Source: Escherichia phage B9-1
Reading direction: 5' to 3' (one strand)
Sequence record: OQ420740.1
Length of the DNA stretch: 64,000 nucleotides
In this document: positions 2,951 to 63,609 of the stretch, one piece after another
How the letters are laid out: each line of letters begins with the position of its first letter
Position numbering within the stretch: position 1 is the first letter of the stretch
Program-made: the position numbers and the translations under genes
Notes under the pieces: model-generated
Database searches by the model: none
Seen by the model: the letters and a program-made list of their open reading frames with translations, nothing else
Told to the model about the DNA's origin: nothing

Positions 2951-3994
2951 ATGACTAAACCAGTTATCCCTCTTGATATTTGGGCCAATCAGGATGTTGT
3001 GCTTGAAAATACGGGAGAATTGAATAAGTCCCAACCAAAAAAAGAAGAGAGATTGAAAGGTTGGGATATGACACAAAGAGTGGCATGTGAAGTTGTTAAC
3101 TTTGAACTTCACATGCTTTCTGCGTGGTTAAAGCATTTAACAGAAGATGTTGTCCCAGGATGGGATAATAGATTCTTAAGGGTCACTAATAATCTGGCAG
3201 ACGTTCCAGACAAAGCTGCTGCACGTCAAGTTCTCAATGTATACTCGCCTGAAGAAATGGATGACCTTTATGTTGACAAGACTGGAGACACAATGATCCA
3301 GACTCAAACTTTAGGTCTTCAAAGAATTGAGTTTGCATCTGCGTCAACAGACAATGCGGCGATATACACCACCATAACTCCAGACAAGACGATGATGGAT
3401 TTCTGGATTATGGACAACATCGGTGGCGCTGACGGCACAGACCTTGATGATCCTTCTCACCAAATAGACGGTTTCCGTTGGAGATTTCAACCTTCTGGTG
3501 GGCAGCCTGTGTTTTCGGCTATGAAGCTCAATGCTATAACTGCCAACCGTGCAAGACTGGCTATCCAAGGAAATCTTGAATGCAATGATGCAAAAAGCTC
3601 CTCTGCAAATGCCAATGCGGTAACGATACCAAGAGCCACTGTTAATGGACAACAATCCTGCGGCAGCGCTCAAATAGGTGGAAGAGTAGATTGTAACGAT
3701 AAAACCGCCAGGGGTCAATATGCAACAGTTGGTGGGAGAAACGTGGTCCGCAGGGTAAATGGTAGTAGCGCAGATAGCAGTGGTAACCTTACTATCCCTA
3801 TGCCTAGTAGGGGTGTTGAAGATGTAAGGATAGCAAACCGTTTCAGAACCACCTACAGAGAATCAAGAGTATACCCTGGGCATGTAATGTGCTCCGGCAA
3901 TTACGCCTATAAACACCCGTATCAAGGTGACTATTGGACTGGTGCTATTCAAAAATTTGTAAACGGTCAATGGATCACGATATCTTATGCTTAA
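2951..3994 (+). CDS. tail fibre protein, paralog B
   Basis: 347 aa from ATG 2951 (SD GGAG 6 nt upstream; track ORF begins at GTG 2948); conserved N-terminus and C-terminus (QKFVNGQWITISYA) shared with 895..1935, divergent central region. Confidence 0.6.
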   Translation: MTKPVIPLDIWANQDVVLENTGELNKSQPKKEERLKGWDMTQRVACEVVNFELHMLSAWLKHLTEDVVPGWDNRFLRVTNNLADVPDKAAARQVLNVYSPEEMDDLYVDKTGDTMIQTQTLGLQRIEFASASTDNAAIYTTITPDKTMMDFWIMDNIGGADGTDLDDPSHQIDGFRWRFQPSGGQPVFSAMKLNAITANRARLAIQGNLECNDAKSSSANANAVTIPRATVNGQQSCGSAQIGGRVDCNDKTARGQYATVGGRNVVRRVNGSSADSSGNLTIPMPSRGVEDVRIANRFRTTYRESRVYPGHVMCSGNYAYKHPYQGDYWTGAIQKFVNGQWITISYA

Positions 3995-12369: not shown

Positions 12370-12532
12370 GACAATCTCCTCTGCTTGGTTGATGAGATAA
12401 TCATATATAAATCTGGTGTTGATGTCAAGCTTAATTTTAAGCAATTTGAGAGGGTATTTTATTTAGAAGGGTAATCACACAGAGGCAGGTAGTTTATGAA
12501 GGCATAGGCCTCGTTTGAGGCCTTAAAATAGG

Positions 12533-12916
12533 TTACGACGATACCTTGACAGATTTATCTGATAAAGCTGGGAAACCTAAAGCAGCACCAAGACCGCCAT
12601 ACGCTATCCACCACTGGAGTTCATCGTGGCACCATTTTCCAATCAAGAAGGTGCTGTAGTAGCGGGTCAGTATCTTGGCATATGCTTTAGGATCTGCATT
12701 CTCCGGTATGATAATGCTTGGTGGGCGTTTGTTATGACCACAGCAGCAGTTTAAGGTCTTCAATCCTGCCGCCCATAGGCTCATGATAGGTTTAGCCATG
12801 CACTTATCAAGGCACACACGTTTTTTGCCGTCACGGAGCTTTTTAGGCACATCAACGATAACATTTGGATGCTTGGCACCTTTCACTTTCCAATTATAAG
12901 ATTTACACTTGCACAT
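12533..12916 (-). CDS. hypothetical Cys-rich protein
   Basis: 127 aa ORF with SD GGAG; multiple Cys (CKCK, CLDKC, NCCCGH); function not recognised. Confidence 0.55.
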   Translation of the reverse strand: MCKCKSYNWKVKGAKHPNVIVDVPKKLRDGKKRVCLDKCMAKPIMSLWAAGLKTLNCCCGHNKRPPSIIIPENADPKAYAKILTRYYSTFLIGKWCHDELQWWIAYGGLGAALGFPALSDKSVKVSS

Positions 12917-12946
12917 TTAGTCAGTCTCCATCTAGAAAGCCATATT

Positions 12947-13117
12947 TTACTTAAAGTCTTTGTCACCTATTACGATTGCACGAATCCACTCATTGTGATG
13001 CTCAATGGATGTAAGGTGTAACATAATGCAGTGATTGTCATTACCAAACACGGCTCGATAAGCCTTAGCAGCACCATGATATAACTTCCACATCACGTAA
13101 TGGTATCTTCGTTTCAT
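12947..13117 (-). CDS. small hypothetical protein (56 aa)
   Basis: ATG overlaps the stop of upstream gene 13114..13593 (ATGA coupling); SD GGAG 8 nt upstream; below the 60-aa track cutoff. Confidence 0.35.
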   Translation of the reverse strand: MKRRYHYVMWKLYHGAAKAYRAVFGNDNHCIMLHLTSIEHHNEWIRAIVIGDKDFK

Positions 13118-41758: not shown

Positions 41759-41956
41759 ATGATTTATCGAATCCGTGTGAGAGAAGATGCACCAGGTTGT
41801 TACTTTGACTGGCGTGGGTGGTGGTTTCTCCACCCAATGGATGGACTCACAGATAGAATGCTAGATGCTGCCCTTTACACAGATACTGACATAGAGTATA
41901 ATCTTTACTTGAAGGATGGTATCGATAACGGCCTGTTTGAAGCAATTCCTGCGTAA
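41759..41956 (+). CDS. hypothetical small protein
   Basis: 65 aa, SD AGGAGG. Confidence 0.5.
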   Translation: MIYRIRVREDAPGCYFDWRGWWFLHPMDGLTDRMLDAALYTDTDIEYNLYLKDGIDNGLFEAIPA

Positions 41957-42021
41957 GAGAATGTGATCGCCATGTTTTATGATCTTCCTGTAGCACCACC
42001 TATTGATCCTGGAGAACTACG

Positions 42022-42447
42022 ATGATTTATGAAATGCCAAAACTGATTCGTGACGATGCACGAAACGCCCACACCTTTATTATGGGCAAGCGCATGGATA
42101 TTATTTGTCACAAAGACTTCTGGGAAGGGAGCTACTTCACAGAATATTTTGGAAAAATGGATGATGGCCTACTGATCCAGTTTTACACCGATGCGGAAAA
42201 CAACATTAGTTGGGAGTTCGAGACCGAAGATGTCCATAAACTTTTCACCTTCCTCGACATTAAGGTTAAGGCCAAGTTTGAAGAAGGTGAGTGCGACGAT
42301 TGTGGATTTTATGAGGTAACGGATTTCTATCTTCCGAGCGGTAAAAACCTTTACTATGAAAGCCACTTCGGTAACTCCAATATGCCACAGTGCTGGACTG
42401 AGTTTTTTGAAATTGTGGAAGAGGAGCTGGAATATCGTGATTATTGA
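42022..42447 (+). CDS. hypothetical protein
   Basis: 141 aa, SD GGAGA. Confidence 0.5.
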   Translation: MIYEMPKLIRDDARNAHTFIMGKRMDIICHKDFWEGSYFTEYFGKMDDGLLIQFYTDAENNISWEFETEDVHKLFTFLDIKVKAKFEEGECDDCGFYEVTDFYLPSGKNLYYESHFGNSNMPQCWTEFFEIVEEELEYRDY

Positions 42448-42895
42448 TACTGTAGAGGGAGATTTAATCTCCCTTTTTAAGAGCGGTGCTGGTCACCTGA
42501 TCCACGGTTGTAACTGCTTCCACACAATGGGGAAGGGTGTAGCAAAGCAGATTGCTCGTGAATTCCCTCAAGCATTGGAAGCTGATAAAATGACTATGCA
42601 CGGTTGCCTAAGTAAACTGGGCGCGTTCTCCCGCTGGGAGCACTTATCTCCGAGAGGTATTGTCTACGGAATAAATCTGTATACTCAGTTCTACCCAGGG
42701 CCTAATGCTGAATATTTCTCAATACTGAAAGGATTTGAGCGAGTCAATGAAGTATTTGAGGGGTCGATTTTACCATTCTACATCCCTAAGATCGGGTGCG
42801 GCATAGGCGGTTTGAAGTGGGAACATGTAGAGGACATTATTAACCTTGCCACTTTTGATATAGATATTATCGTGGTGGAGTACAAAGAGTGTTGA
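42437..42895 (+). CDS. macro-domain protein (ADP-ribose binding/processing)
   Basis: GTG 42437 with SD GAGGAG (track ORF starts further upstream inside the preceding gene); GDLISLFKSGAGHLIHGCNCFHTMGKGVAKQIA aligns with the macrodomain pattern GDIT...VNAAN..L.GGGGV.GAI; second glycine motif IGCGIGG. Confidence 0.55.
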   Translation: MIIDTVEGDLISLFKSGAGHLIHGCNCFHTMGKGVAKQIAREFPQALEADKMTMHGCLSKLGAFSRWEHLSPRGIVYGINLYTQFYPGPNAEYFSILKGFERVNEVFEGSILPFYIPKIGCGIGGLKWEHVEDIINLATFDIDIIVVEYKEC

Positions 42896-42920
42896 CAGCT
42901 ATATTTTAAGGTGGTATAGT
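42892..42920 (+). promoter_or_regulatory. sigma70-like promoter
   Basis: TTGACA, 17-bp spacer, TATAGT, ~30 nt upstream of ATG 42950. Confidence 0.5.
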
Positions 42921-42949
42921 CACCACAACGATTAAGACAGGGGAGCACT

Positions 42950-43144
42950 ATGGAGACTAAAATCTTAATTCTAGCTGTGGTAGATACAACAGAAGGAGCC
43001 ATGTTTGAATCTGCAGGAGGGTATTTCTACCTGCCCTACGGAAAAAGAACTTCCGAGCCGAGTAAAGATTCAATCATCAAAGTGTTCCCGTGTGCTTTCT
43101 GGCTGGAGATTCTGGTAGAAGATTGCAGAGGCTTGGGGAGATAA
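42950..43144 (+). CDS. hypothetical small protein
   Basis: 64 aa ORF with SD GGGGAG. Confidence 0.4.
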   Translation: METKILILAVVDTTEGAMFESAGGYFYLPYGKRTSEPSKDSIIKVFPCAFWLEILVEDCRGLGR

Positions 43145-43146
43145 TT

Positions 43147-43341
43147 ATGAGAAACAAGAAAGAGCTTTACTCTGGCGAGTGGATAAACGATCAACAGGTA
43201 GGAGAGGTAACCTGCTTCCGTTGCTTTACTCGGTACAATCTTAAAACTGCACCAAAAAGTGTTCCAAAGACTGACGGTTATTACATAAAAGAACCTCATT
43301 GCCCGAAGTGTAAATGCCGAGTATACTGGAGTAACCTGTAA
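43147..43341 (+). CDS. small zinc-ribbon protein
   Basis: ATG 43147 with SD GGGGAGA; CFRC ... CPKC paired Cys motifs. Confidence 0.45.
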   Translation: MRNKKELYSGEWINDQQVGEVTCFRCFTRYNLKTAPKSVPKTDGYYIKEPHCPKCKCRVYWSNL

Positions 43342-43345
43342 AAGG

Positions 43346-43373
43346 TTGACATCTGAAAACTGCGGTATATAAT
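43346..43373 (+). promoter_or_regulatory. sigma70-like promoter
   Basis: TTGACA, 16-bp spacer, TATAAT, ~30 nt upstream of ATG 43405. Confidence 0.55.
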
Positions 43374-43404
43374 ATAAACATAAACTAGCAGAGAGGGATA
43401 AATT

Positions 43405-44724: not shown

Positions 44725-44753
44725 TTGAAAATCCCTGGCACATCAAGTATAAG
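44725..44753 (+). promoter_or_regulatory. sigma70-like promoter
   Basis: TTGAAA, 17-bp spacer, TATAAG, immediately followed by SD AAGGAGG and a short ORF. Confidence 0.45.
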
Positions 44754-44766
44754 GAGGATTTCTAAA

Positions 44767-44874
44767 ATGGACTTCCTCCTTTTGATATTTTACCTGGCCG
44801 GATATTTTAAAATTCTTAGAAAATCAGAAAATGGATCGAAAACTAAAATGGATTTTTCAAGACAGGCGCGATAA
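44767..44874 (+). CDS. putative micro-protein (35 aa, hydrophobic N-terminus)
   Basis: ATG 8 nt after strong SD AAGGAGG; MDFLLLIFYLAGYFKIL...; below track cutoff. Confidence 0.3.
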   Translation: MDFLLLIFYLAGYFKILRKSENGSKTKMDFSRQAR

Positions 44875-45032
44875 GATGTGCTGCTCATTCTATCGTTCGC
44901 ACCGTACTTTAAGTTACTATTCCAGATTTTCCGCACATACTCTCACCCTTCTACCAGGACTTTCCCAGCTTACCTTTGACCCTTTATAACAATAAACCCA
45001 TTATTCTCAGTAGGTTTTGATACATCTCTCTC

Positions 45033-45198
45033 AGTACTCGATCTGTTTTTCGTTTCAAAGATTGAATTTTCTGAAAATTTTTCTCGATAAATTTCTTAGT
45101 ACTCGATCTGTTTTTCGTTTTCTGAATCAGATTTTCTGGAAATCGTTCCGGAGCTCGACCTGAAATTTTTGGGGACGAAATCGATTTTTCGTTTTCGG
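45033..45198. repeat. iteron-like direct repeats
   Basis: 23-bp AGTACTCGATCTGTTTTTCGTTT at ~45033-45055 and ~45098-45120, with degenerate copies GCTCGACCTGAAATTTTTGG (~45151) and AATCGATTTTTCGTTTTCGG (~45179). Confidence 0.55.
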
Positions 45199-45326
45199 AA
45201 ATGGATTTTTAAAATTTGTATATGGAAATACTTAAGGAGGTATTATTTTATATAGAATTGTCACGGTAGGTAATTAGCATGCTAACTAAATTTATGAAAT
45301 GCGAAAAGTTCTCATTTAGAATTTTG

Positions 45327-45380
45327 AATGATAATCATTCTCGTTTGCAGAATAACGGGCACCCCCGGTGATTGTCTCCC
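45327..45380. repeat. GC-rich conserved element, copy 1 (AATGATAAT...CCGGTGATTGTCTCCC)
   Basis: AT-rich arm AATGATAATCATTCTCGTTTGCAG then core CCGGTGATTGTCTCCC (45365-45380); repeated ~130 bp downstream and in inverse orientation at 54119. Confidence 0.5.
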
Positions 45381-45456
45381 GGCCCCTGTTGCCCCGGCTT
45401 GTTATTATAGTATCACACAGGACAAAGAAAGCAAGGATTTTTTGCATAAATTTTTA

Positions 45457-45514
45457 AATGATAATGATAACCGTTCTCATTTTATGCAGCGCCCATCCCC
45501 GGTGGTTGTCTCCC
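45457..45514. repeat. GC-rich conserved element, copy 2
   Basis: AATGATAATGATAACCGTTCTCATTTTATGCAG then core CCGGTGGTTGTCTCCC (45499-45514). Confidence 0.5.
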
Positions 45515-45699
45515 CCGTCACCGGTGCCTGCCGTCCTTTCGATAGGTATATTGTGCCACCTGGCGGGGCCGCTGTCAACACTTTTCAAAAAAATTCTAAC
45601 CTGATGCGCTAACCGTTGCAACCTGGCGGGGCCAGCCTGGCAGGGCTATGCTATAGGGTAGGCAACAACTGAAGAGGAGGTACAAAAATAAAAGGTAAT

Positions 45700-45867
45700 A
45701 TGATCCCTGGAAATGTAGCGATTAATGACGCTGAGGCTATCGCCCTGGTTGAAAAGGCTATGGCGGGAGCGTTGGAACATAAAGAAGAGTACGAAAAAAT
45801 GATGGTTAACCTGGCAGGGCGGCGGCTGGAGAATTCTGCCCAAAAAATAATTCTAACTAATGGTTGA
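45700..45867 (+). CDS. putative small protein (55 aa)
   Basis: ORF MIPGNVAINDAEAIALVEKAMAG... with coding-like composition; weak SD AAAGG; below track cutoff; overlapping antisense track ORF 45646..45843 looks spurious. Confidence 0.3.
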   Translation: MIPGNVAINDAEAIALVEKAMAGALEHKEEYEKMMVNLAGRRLENSAQKIILTNG

Positions 45868-45891
45868 CAGCTCGGATAGTTCTGTTATTCT
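45864..45891 (+). promoter_or_regulatory. sigma70-like promoter
   Basis: TTGACA, 16-bp spacer, TATTCT, ~50 nt upstream of ATG 45944. Confidence 0.45.
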
Positions 45892-45943
45892 TATCCTCGC
45901 AAGGTGAACAACACCACACTAATTAACAGAGAGGATAAAAATC

Positions 45944-63297: not shown

Positions 63298-63609
63298 TCA
63301 AAAGTCAATCTTTACTTTGCCTTTTCCCTTACCTTTCTTTCCACCACACTTAGCCAACTGGCGTGCTGCAACATCTACCATACGGTCAGTTGCCTCGTAA
63401 GCATCACTACCTTTAGCTTTGGCGATAACTTCTTTTCCAGAAGTGTCAAAAATGAAAGCCATAACTTCCTGGTGATCATTTTCAACTTTTACACTCACAC
63501 GTGCATAGTTGGCAGAGGGGTGCAAACGCTCCAGCTTGGACATTTTGTTGGAAATGAAAGACACCATACCTTCAGTGATCTCTACGTTGCCAGTGATTTC
63601 AATTTGCAT
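63298..63609 (-). CDS. hpf: ribosome hibernation promoting factor homolog (HPF / RaiA / YfiA family)
   Basis: 103 aa; N-terminus MQIEITGNVEITEGMVSFISNKMSKLERL closely follows the bacterial HPF consensus MQLNITGHNVEITEALREFVTAKFAKLEQ; family-typical length; Lys/Gly-rich C-terminal tail. Confidence 0.7.
   Translation of the reverse strand: MQIEITGNVEITEGMVSFISNKMSKLERLHPSANYARVSVKVENDHQEVMAFIFDTSGKEVIAKAKGSDAYEATDRMVDVAARQLAKCGGKKGKGKGKVKIDF

Follow-up and report, generated by a model that had tools for sequence, protein, structure and literature searches.

The window analyzed here, a 64,000-nt stretch of DNA, is from a Vequintavirinae (rV5-like) coliphage, and the features of one locus within it are collected in Table 1. 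A gene coding for a 152-aa macrodomain protein opens a long run of small plus-strand genes with sigma-70-type promoters, about 5.7 kb downstream of genes coding for a helicase-primase and a family-A DNA polymerase. It is preceded by a gene coding for a 141-aa protein, and a promoter-like sequence ahead of this pair likely drives the two as a unit. A second promoter serves the next small gene (42950-43144). Promoter-like sites number 33 in the region versus 15.6 +/- 3.8 expected from shuffled sequences, roughly a twofold enrichment. The noncoding stretch nearby gave no match to Rfam families and no tRNA. Over the 1.5 kb around the macrodomain gene, identity to Escherichia phage S127 BCL3 is 99.3%, and at least 80% of this segment is covered by 116 phage records.

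Table 1. Features of the macrodomain locus, in coordinates of the window
Feature	Coordinates	Strand	Basis and remarks
Promoter of the two-gene unit, sigma-70 type	41874-41902	+	TTTACA-17-TATAAT; score 11/12
Upstream gene	42022-42447	+	141 aa; phrog_8157; overlaps macrodomain gene start by 11 nt
Shine-Dalgarno sequence GAGGAG	42421-42426	+	Direct reading; 10 nt 5' of the GTG, within the 3' end of the upstream gene
Macrodomain gene	42437-42895	+	152-aa ORF; GTG start, TGA stop (42893-42895); Pfam Macro, phrog_335, AlphaFold2, Foldseek; T4 Tk.4/AdfM ortholog
Loop 1/catalytic loop, residues 23-36 (HGCNCFHTMGKGVA)	42503-42544	+	Invariant columns, residue mapping
N80-L-Y-T-Q84 motif	42674-42688	+	Alignments; Q84 codon CAG at 42686-42688
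Loop 2/phosphate-binding loop, residues 117-125 (PKIGCGIGG)	42785-42811	+	G120 and G122 align with SCO6735 G126 and G128
Promoter of the next gene, sigma-70 type	42892-42920	+	TTGACA (42892-42897), 17-nt spacer, TATAGT (42915-42920); score 11/12; extended -10 TG; overlaps macrodomain stop codon

A sequence-only reading of this DNA had placed the macrodomain start at a GTG overlapping the upstream gene and a consensus promoter at the macrodomain stop codon, and both are borne out. A longer reading from the ATG at 42356, giving 179 aa, is unsupported because in the DNA alignment the GTG falls, base for base, where the Krischvirus and T2 orthologs have their ATG; the homologs all start at this position, and the 27 additional residues fall within the upstream gene, in a different frame. 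The Shine-Dalgarno sequence is kept in the rV5-like relatives, and from its presence and the overlap, the upstream and macrodomain genes are probably translationally coupled.

We considered whether the upstream gene might act together with the macrodomain, perhaps as a module that binds DarT, and rejected this: no Pfam domain was detected in its 141-aa product, and the gene is found in Vequintavirinae and Krischvirus only. In Krischvirus, the phrog_8157 gene lies about 10 kb from the macrodomain gene, so the pairing seen here is not conserved. Among the 78 window ORFs of at least 75 aa, none matched NADAR, ART, DarT, Nudix, sirtuin, or Nampt families (E<=1e-3), and none was a NAD-salvage, KptA/Tpt1, or 2H gene. 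The related phages Bas60 to Bas62 carry the NADAR protein AdfN.

The product is a macrodomain by profile, fold, and homology. The sequence-only reading had recognized an ADP-ribose-binding pattern, GDLISLFKSGAGHLIHGCNCFHTMGKGVAKQIA (residues 8 to 40), and a second glycine motif, IGCGIGG (residues 119 to 125), and had proposed a macro profile search and a structure prediction as checks; the two correspond to the two loops with which a macrodomain binds ADP-ribose, with Pfam, PHROG, fold, and homology in agreement and the sequence matches far stronger than chance would give. Pfam Macro (PF01661) matches over the whole domain, positions 1 to 118 of 118, at 32 bits against a gathering cutoff of 22 (E 1.3e-7), and phrog_335, which carries the PHROG label "phosphatase," matches at 1e-60. 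An AlphaFold2 model built from an alignment of 37 homologs (pLDDT 95.8, pTM 0.90) has six strands and six helices, in keeping with the three-layer alpha/beta/alpha macrodomain fold, whose mixed sheet of six strands is accompanied by two Gly-rich loops that bind ADP-ribose. With this predicted model as the query, Foldseek returned more than 100 macrodomain chains at probability 1.00, the best matches in the PDB being TARG1 (4j5r/4j5s), Poa1p (6lfr), and DarG (5m31/5m3e/5m3i), with TM scores of ~0.73 to 0.79; among these closest structures, 5m31 and 5m3e are Thermus aquaticus DarG and 5m3i is Mycobacterium tuberculosis DarG. Searches of the PDB by sequence and with a profile of the family give a similar picture, the profile matching M. 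tuberculosis DarG (2.3e-18), TARG1 (1.9e-17), T. aquaticus DarG (2.8e-16), BT1257 (1.9e-15), SCO6735 (9e-15), and Poa1p (1.7e-14). The Gly-rich loops, HGCNCFHTMGKG and IGCGIGG, are conserved among the homologs, and the protein is almost certainly a functional, ADP-ribose-binding macrodomain.

The active site is highly conserved. H23, N26, N80, Q84, G120, and G122 are all present and are invariant in three sets of homologs, and Q84 in particular is found in 37 of 37 selected homologs, 143 of 143 further cluster representatives, and 79 of 79 bacterial homologs, the last of these retrieved with a pattern that left the Q84 position out. The strict invariance of the His/Asn/Asn/Gln residues argues for catalysis. 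H23, N26, K33, Q84, G120, and G122 align with H24, N27, K34, Q85, G126, and G128 of SCO6735 from Streptomyces coelicolor; N26 also corresponds to DarG N22, and G32 and G34 form a GxG motif. For this comparison, the SCO6735 sequence was taken from the PDB alignment, reached through a divergent homolog (P0104), and its numbering agrees with the published one at all eight positions checked (H24, V25, N27, K34, Q85, K89, G126, and G128; PMC9411070). In profile and multiple alignments, Q84 occupies the position of the lysines DarG K80, TARG1 K84, and PhiKZ AdfM K78, and in the profile alignment, TARG1 Asp125 aligns with Gly124. Judged from these aligned residues, the catalytic set is Gln-type and SCO6735-like, not DarG-like, placing the Tk.4/AdfM type in a Gln-type branch of the TARG1/DarG/Poa1p class.

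Homologs are widespread in phages, being present in 2,809 of 50,697 phage records searched by tblastn. Most of these phages are large, virulent myoviruses that infect Escherichia, Klebsiella, Salmonella, Pseudomonas, Vibrio, and Acinetobacter. A HMMER search of 1.84 billion cluster representatives returned 1,070 matches at E<=1e-30 and 10,621 at E<=1e-10. The macrodomain protein of Krischvirus (RB49-like) phages is 70% identical to the 152-aa protein, compared with 41% for that of T4; its gene resides in a T4-like regB-vs-tk.4 locus. Because the Krischvirus version is far closer and shares its first 18 coding nucleotides, start codon excepted, with the gene described here, the alignment suggests lateral exchange between T-even-like and rV5-like coliphages.

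The 352 confirmed bacterial homologs are ~40% identical and are mostly from marine and sediment Desulfobacterales, Rhodobacterales, Verrucomicrobiota, and Bacteroidota. All 79 that were examined are standalone proteins of ~150 aa with heterogeneous neighbors, which speaks against their being DarT-linked antitoxins. Among families seen at least twice in their 146 flanking ORFs, NADAR occurs three times and NUDIX twice, and DarT is not represented; a rarer linkage to DarT, below this threshold of two, is possible. With no recurrent DarT beside the bacterial homologs, the family does not appear to have evolved as a DarT antitoxin, and from these neighborhoods it looks like an orphan housekeeping eraser that was taken up by phages rather than a detached DarG antitoxin.

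The gene family is not new and has been annotated in rV5-like genomes for years. GenBank labels in these genomes include "macro domain protein," "phosphatase," and "T4-like protein with Macro domain, Poa1p_like family," and the original rV5 record has "Tk.4 conserved hypothetical protein." Two modest points are added here: that the Tk.4/AdfM family is Gln-type (SCO6735-like) and distinct from PhiKZ AdfM, and that its nearest relatives seem to be orphan bacterial macrodomains, not DarG antitoxins.

A role in counterdefense, as the sequence-only reading had proposed, is supported by orthology to T4 Tk.4, whose gene is conditionally essential on DarTG2 hosts. In DarTG2 systems, infection frees DarT2, which ADP-ribosylates thymidines of phage single-stranded DNA (ssDNA) and blocks replication (PMC13309987; PMC11825919). 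T4 lacking AdfA and AdfN stays resistant to DarTG2, predicting a further factor (PMC11825919), and tk.4 was subsequently the single significantly depleted gene when a T4 transposon library was grown on a DarTG2 host; a clean tk.4 knockout renders T4 sensitive to DarTG2, and the gene was named adfM, for anti-DarT factor Macrodomain (bioRxiv 10.1101/2025.11.20.689424). This evidence, from a preprint, is purely genetic. T4 tk.4 is nonessential on Escherichia coli K-12 without DarTG2. A biochemical counterpart is SCO6735, which removes thymidine-linked ADP-ribose (T-ADPr) from DNA, loses all activity with the Q85A substitution, and shields cells from DarT (PMC9411070); its authors propose a mechanism in which the Gln orients the distal ribose while a water held by the backbone takes part in catalysis (PMC9411070; reviewed in PMC9967889).

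Taken together, we favor the reading, with a probability of roughly 60% for the full chain, that the gene codes for a standalone ADP-ribosylhydrolase of the Gln type, expressed early, which undoes the modification of phage ssDNA by DarT2; its substrate (T-ADPr DNA), its early timing, and its action against DarTG2 are carried over from T4 Tk.4 genetics and SCO6735 biochemistry. Judging from the promoter-like sequences, host RNA polymerase would transcribe the two-gene unit early, and the macrodomain would be translated from its GTG, probably coupled to the upstream ORF. The protein would bind ADP-ribose via its two Gly-rich loops and cleave the N-glycosidic bond by a route modeled on SCO6735, in which Gln84, kept in place by Asn26, orients the distal ribose and the reaction itself is carried out by a water that the backbone positions near His23/Gly24. 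This Gln/water scheme would stand in for the lysine that serves DarG and TARG1 as nucleophile or base, and phage replication would be restored, as the T4 tk.4 phenotype implies.

The main point of doubt appears to be substrate range, SCO6735-class enzymes being promiscuous. One alternative is that the substrates are small ADP-ribose derivatives, the protein acting as an ADP-ribose-1''-phosphate (Appr-1''-p) phosphatase, an O-acetyl-ADP-ribose (OAADPr) deacetylase, or a degrader of ADP-ribose-derived immune signals or toxic metabolites. In its N-terminal H-x-C-N-C motif, the protein most resembles yeast Poa1p (6lfu/6lfq, E ~1e-5 over residues 6 to 47), to which the family profile also matches, and Iyer et al. 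argued from comparative genomics that phage macrodomains mainly counter soluble ADP-ribose derivatives (PMC9503650); moreover, a homolog adjoins a ribose-phosphate pyrophosphokinase gene in some Vibrio phages, and the NADAR and NUDIX genes that recur beside bacterial homologs would suit such a role. The "phosphatase" and "Poa1p_like" labels of PHROG and of several GenBank records point the same way, but "phosphatase" is a transferred annotation rather than an assay result. We consider this explanation unlikely, as T4 Tk.4 is the one member of the family for which functional data exist and these point to DarTG2, the Gln/His/Asn set fits SCO6735, a demonstrated DNA-ADPr hydrolase, and none of the 78 window ORFs is a gene of NAD salvage or of the KptA/Tpt1 or 2H families.

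It is similarly improbable that the main substrate is uracil-linked ADP-ribose (U-ADPr) on RNA or Asp/Glu-linked ADP-ribose on protein, with the phage countering another ADP-ribosyltransferase (ART) defense of the host, or tuning host proteins, and with DarT2 reversal as a side activity. The catalytic repertoire for this exists, since SCO6735, TARG1, and DarG strip U-ADPr from ssRNA (PMC13036486) and SCO6735 and TARG1 also hydrolyze Asp/Glu-linked protein ADP-ribose (PMC9411070; PMC9967889), and the 2,809 phage records with homologs include phages that may never meet DarTG2. However, no bacterial defense that restricts these phages through U-ADPr RNA or Asp/Glu-protein modification is known, CmdT modifies adenine in a reaction described as irreversible (PMC13036486), and the DarTG2 phenotype in T4 genetics is clean. 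Still less probable, and in our view very doubtful, is a mainly noncatalytic protein that binds ADP-ribose or ADP-ribosylated DNA or inhibits DarT directly. The phage factors AdfA and AdfB do work by DarT binding, catalytically dead SCO6735 Q85A, DarG K80A, and TARG1 K84A remain inhibitors of DarT in vitro (PMC9411070), and the canonical catalytic Lys is absent from the 152-aa protein; but strict invariance of His23, Asn26, Asn80, and Gln84 across hundreds of divergent homologs is expected of an enzyme, the equivalent Gln is essential for SCO6735 catalysis, and a protein of 152 aa in total has no DarG-type C-terminal DarT-binding domain.

Against the preferred reading, reversal of DarT2 modification of phage ssDNA, stands the promiscuity of SCO6735-class enzymes on acidic protein residues and U-ADPr RNA (PMC9411070; PMC13036486), owing to which the physiological substrate may differ from T-ADPr DNA. 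The orphan status of the bacterial homologs and the comparative genomics argument for small ADP-ribose derivatives (PMC9503650) also count against it. A bolder proposal, which we put forward as speculation with a low but not negligible chance of being correct, is that Gln-type Tk.4 macrodomains are mechanistically distinct broad-spectrum erasers, removing ADP-ribose from DNA thymine, RNA uracil, and acidic protein residues by lysine-independent, water-mediated chemistry, and that large virulent phages borrowed them from orphan bacterial housekeeping macrodomains and not from DarG antitoxins. If so, one small early gene would disarm several ADP-ribosyltransferase-based defenses beyond DarTG2.

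If the anti-DarTG2 assignment is right, rV5-like (Vequintavirinae) phages have a built-in DarTG2 counter. These phages serve in E. coli O157 biocontrol and in phage therapy cocktails, and since DarTG2 occurs in many bacteria, pathogenic E. coli among them, the gene would aid host range prediction. Separating two unrelated AdfM families, as described below, matters for annotation and for mechanistic work; apart from these points, the gene is an ordinary member of a very large and already annotated family.

Among the known systems compared, T4/T2 Tk.4 is a clear ortholog. It is 155 aa long, is homologous over its full length (41% identity, E 7e-43, 99% coverage), belongs to PHROG 335, and shares the H-G-C-N-C...MG.G.A, N-L-Y-T-Q, and P.IG.GIG motifs; both are standalone genes amid small early-region genes, and their start codons align exactly. 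The two differ in that T4 is a member of the Straboviridae, its regB/vs/tk cluster is absent here, its start is ATG rather than GTG, and it has Ser in place of Lys33.

SCO6735 (PDB 5e3b) shares the H24/N27/Q85/G126/G128 constellation, as well as K34, and is likewise a standalone orphan macrodomain with no adjacent DarT. However, it is only ~27% identical, V25 corresponds to Gly24, and it is coded for by a chromosomal, DNA damage-inducible gene rather than by a phage. Its mobile loop after the Gln is 5 to 6 residues longer, and the 152-aa protein lacks this extended loop with Lys89/Lys94, K89 aligning with a gap both here and in T4 Tk.4; the low identity and the missing 5-residue loop segment with K89 also weigh against the T-ADPr reading.

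DarG macrodomains are of the same fold and class and give the best sequence and profile matches in the PDB, with N22 corresponding to Asn26. The reaction proposed for the 152-aa protein, release of T-ADPr from ssDNA, is also that of DarG and of PhiKZ-type AdfM. In contrast, the catalytic Lys, K80, is replaced by Gln84, and neither the C-terminal DarT-binding domain nor a darT neighbor is present. The NCBIfam DarG model NF048014 scores 47.1 bits against an equivalog cutoff of 250, with matches confined to the N-terminal 143 of 338 profile positions, and the PADLOC DarG model matches at 2e-14 over its macrodomain part only. DarG proper is therefore ruled out by score, by architecture (152 aa, macrodomain only), and by the catalytic residue.

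TARG1/OARD1 (4j5r/4j5s) and Poa1p (6lfr) are top structural matches (TM 0.74 to 0.79) of similar size, and the TARG1 His and Poa1p H23 correspond to His23. However, the TARG1 catalytic dyad Lys84/Asp125 is replaced by Gln84/Gly124, and Poa1p, an Appr-1''-p phosphatase, carries long insertions; its H-x-C-N-C loop matches well, but its overall match, by profile and by structure (TM ~0.7), is no better than those of DarG and TARG1. Neither TARG1 nor Poa1p is a phage defense-evasion protein.

PhiKZ-type AdfM (gp104) shares the fold and class, with N23 corresponding to Asn26, and removes T-ADPr from ssDNA biochemically, using an N23/K78 active site (Cell Rep 2026, PMC13309987). It differs in being only 24% identical (E 2e-5) and in having K78 at the position of Gln84, and the 152-aa protein falls outside this type. 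Judged by these residues, the name AdfM covers two lineages, a Lys-type, DarG2-like one in chimalliviruses and a Gln-type, SCO6735-like one in T-even, rV5-like, and many other phages.

The B9-1 macrodomain gene, an orthologue of T4 tk.4, is closer to that of a T-even-like relative than to that of T4 itself: the rV5-type protein shares 70% identity with the macrodomain in the Tk.4 locus of Krischvirus phages versus 41% with that of T4, and codons 1 to 6 of the Krischvirus and rV5-type genes are nearly identical in DNA, which together suggest that the gene recently passed laterally between coliphages of the T-even-like and rV5-like groups. The overlapping upstream gene codes for a protein present only in Vequintavirinae and Krischvirus phages; the Krischvirus homologue is about 38% identical and its gene adjoins dam.

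Coordinates of features in the B9-1 window and in compared phages
Feature	Location	Strand	Remarks
phrog_8157 gene	window 42022-42447	+	141 aa; stop overlaps start of macrodomain gene by 11 nt
Stretch without long ORFs	window ~44725-45900		about 1.1 kb, with repeats
Direct repeats	window 45024-45209		47-55 nt, spaced 65-74 nt
Duplicated unit	window 45298-45380 and 45447-45514		about 130 nt
S30AE-domain ORF	window 63298-63609	-	103 aa; Pfam and phmmer
Krischvirus macrodomain in Tk.4 locus	Enterobacteria phage Whisky 2501-2956
PhiKZ AdfM locus	PhiKZ 12518-13006
T2 AdfM locus	T2 3001-3468

Bacterial homologues, of which the best 80 of 352 (∼40% identity) were examined, are patchily distributed, mainly in marine or sediment lineages. 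Those examined are standalone proteins that retain Gln84, the invariant glutamine of the phage protein, and their genes occasionally adjoin NADAR (three times) or NUDIX (twice) genes. Sixteen GenBank records titled 'Campylobacter phage' (host C. jejuni), including MG065661, MG065682, and MG065644, match window 41900-43400 at ∼91% identity, and these are probably coliphage genomes that are mislabelled or contaminant.

Two further features of the window lie outside the macrodomain locus. The stretch without long ORFs contains both a set of direct repeats and a unit present twice, and a scan of it found neither Rfam families nor tRNAs; the stretch may serve as an origin or encode a regulatory RNA. 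An intergenic region of about 2 kb without insertions is reported in Bas54, also of the Vequintavirinae (HIDEN-SEQ preprint, 10.1101/2025.11.20.689424). The S30AE-domain ORF matches the Ribosomal_S30AE/hibernation-promoting-factor domain (Pfam, 1.1e-12) and E. coli HPF (phmmer, 3.5e-15), and is a phage-encoded homologue of this ribosome-hibernation factor.

AdfM was chosen independently as the name for two only distantly related macrodomain proteins, compared here at the PhiKZ and T2 loci: PhiKZ gp104 AdfM is Lys-type and DarG2-like, whereas T4 Tk.4 AdfM is Gln-type and resembles Streptomyces coelicolor SCO6735.
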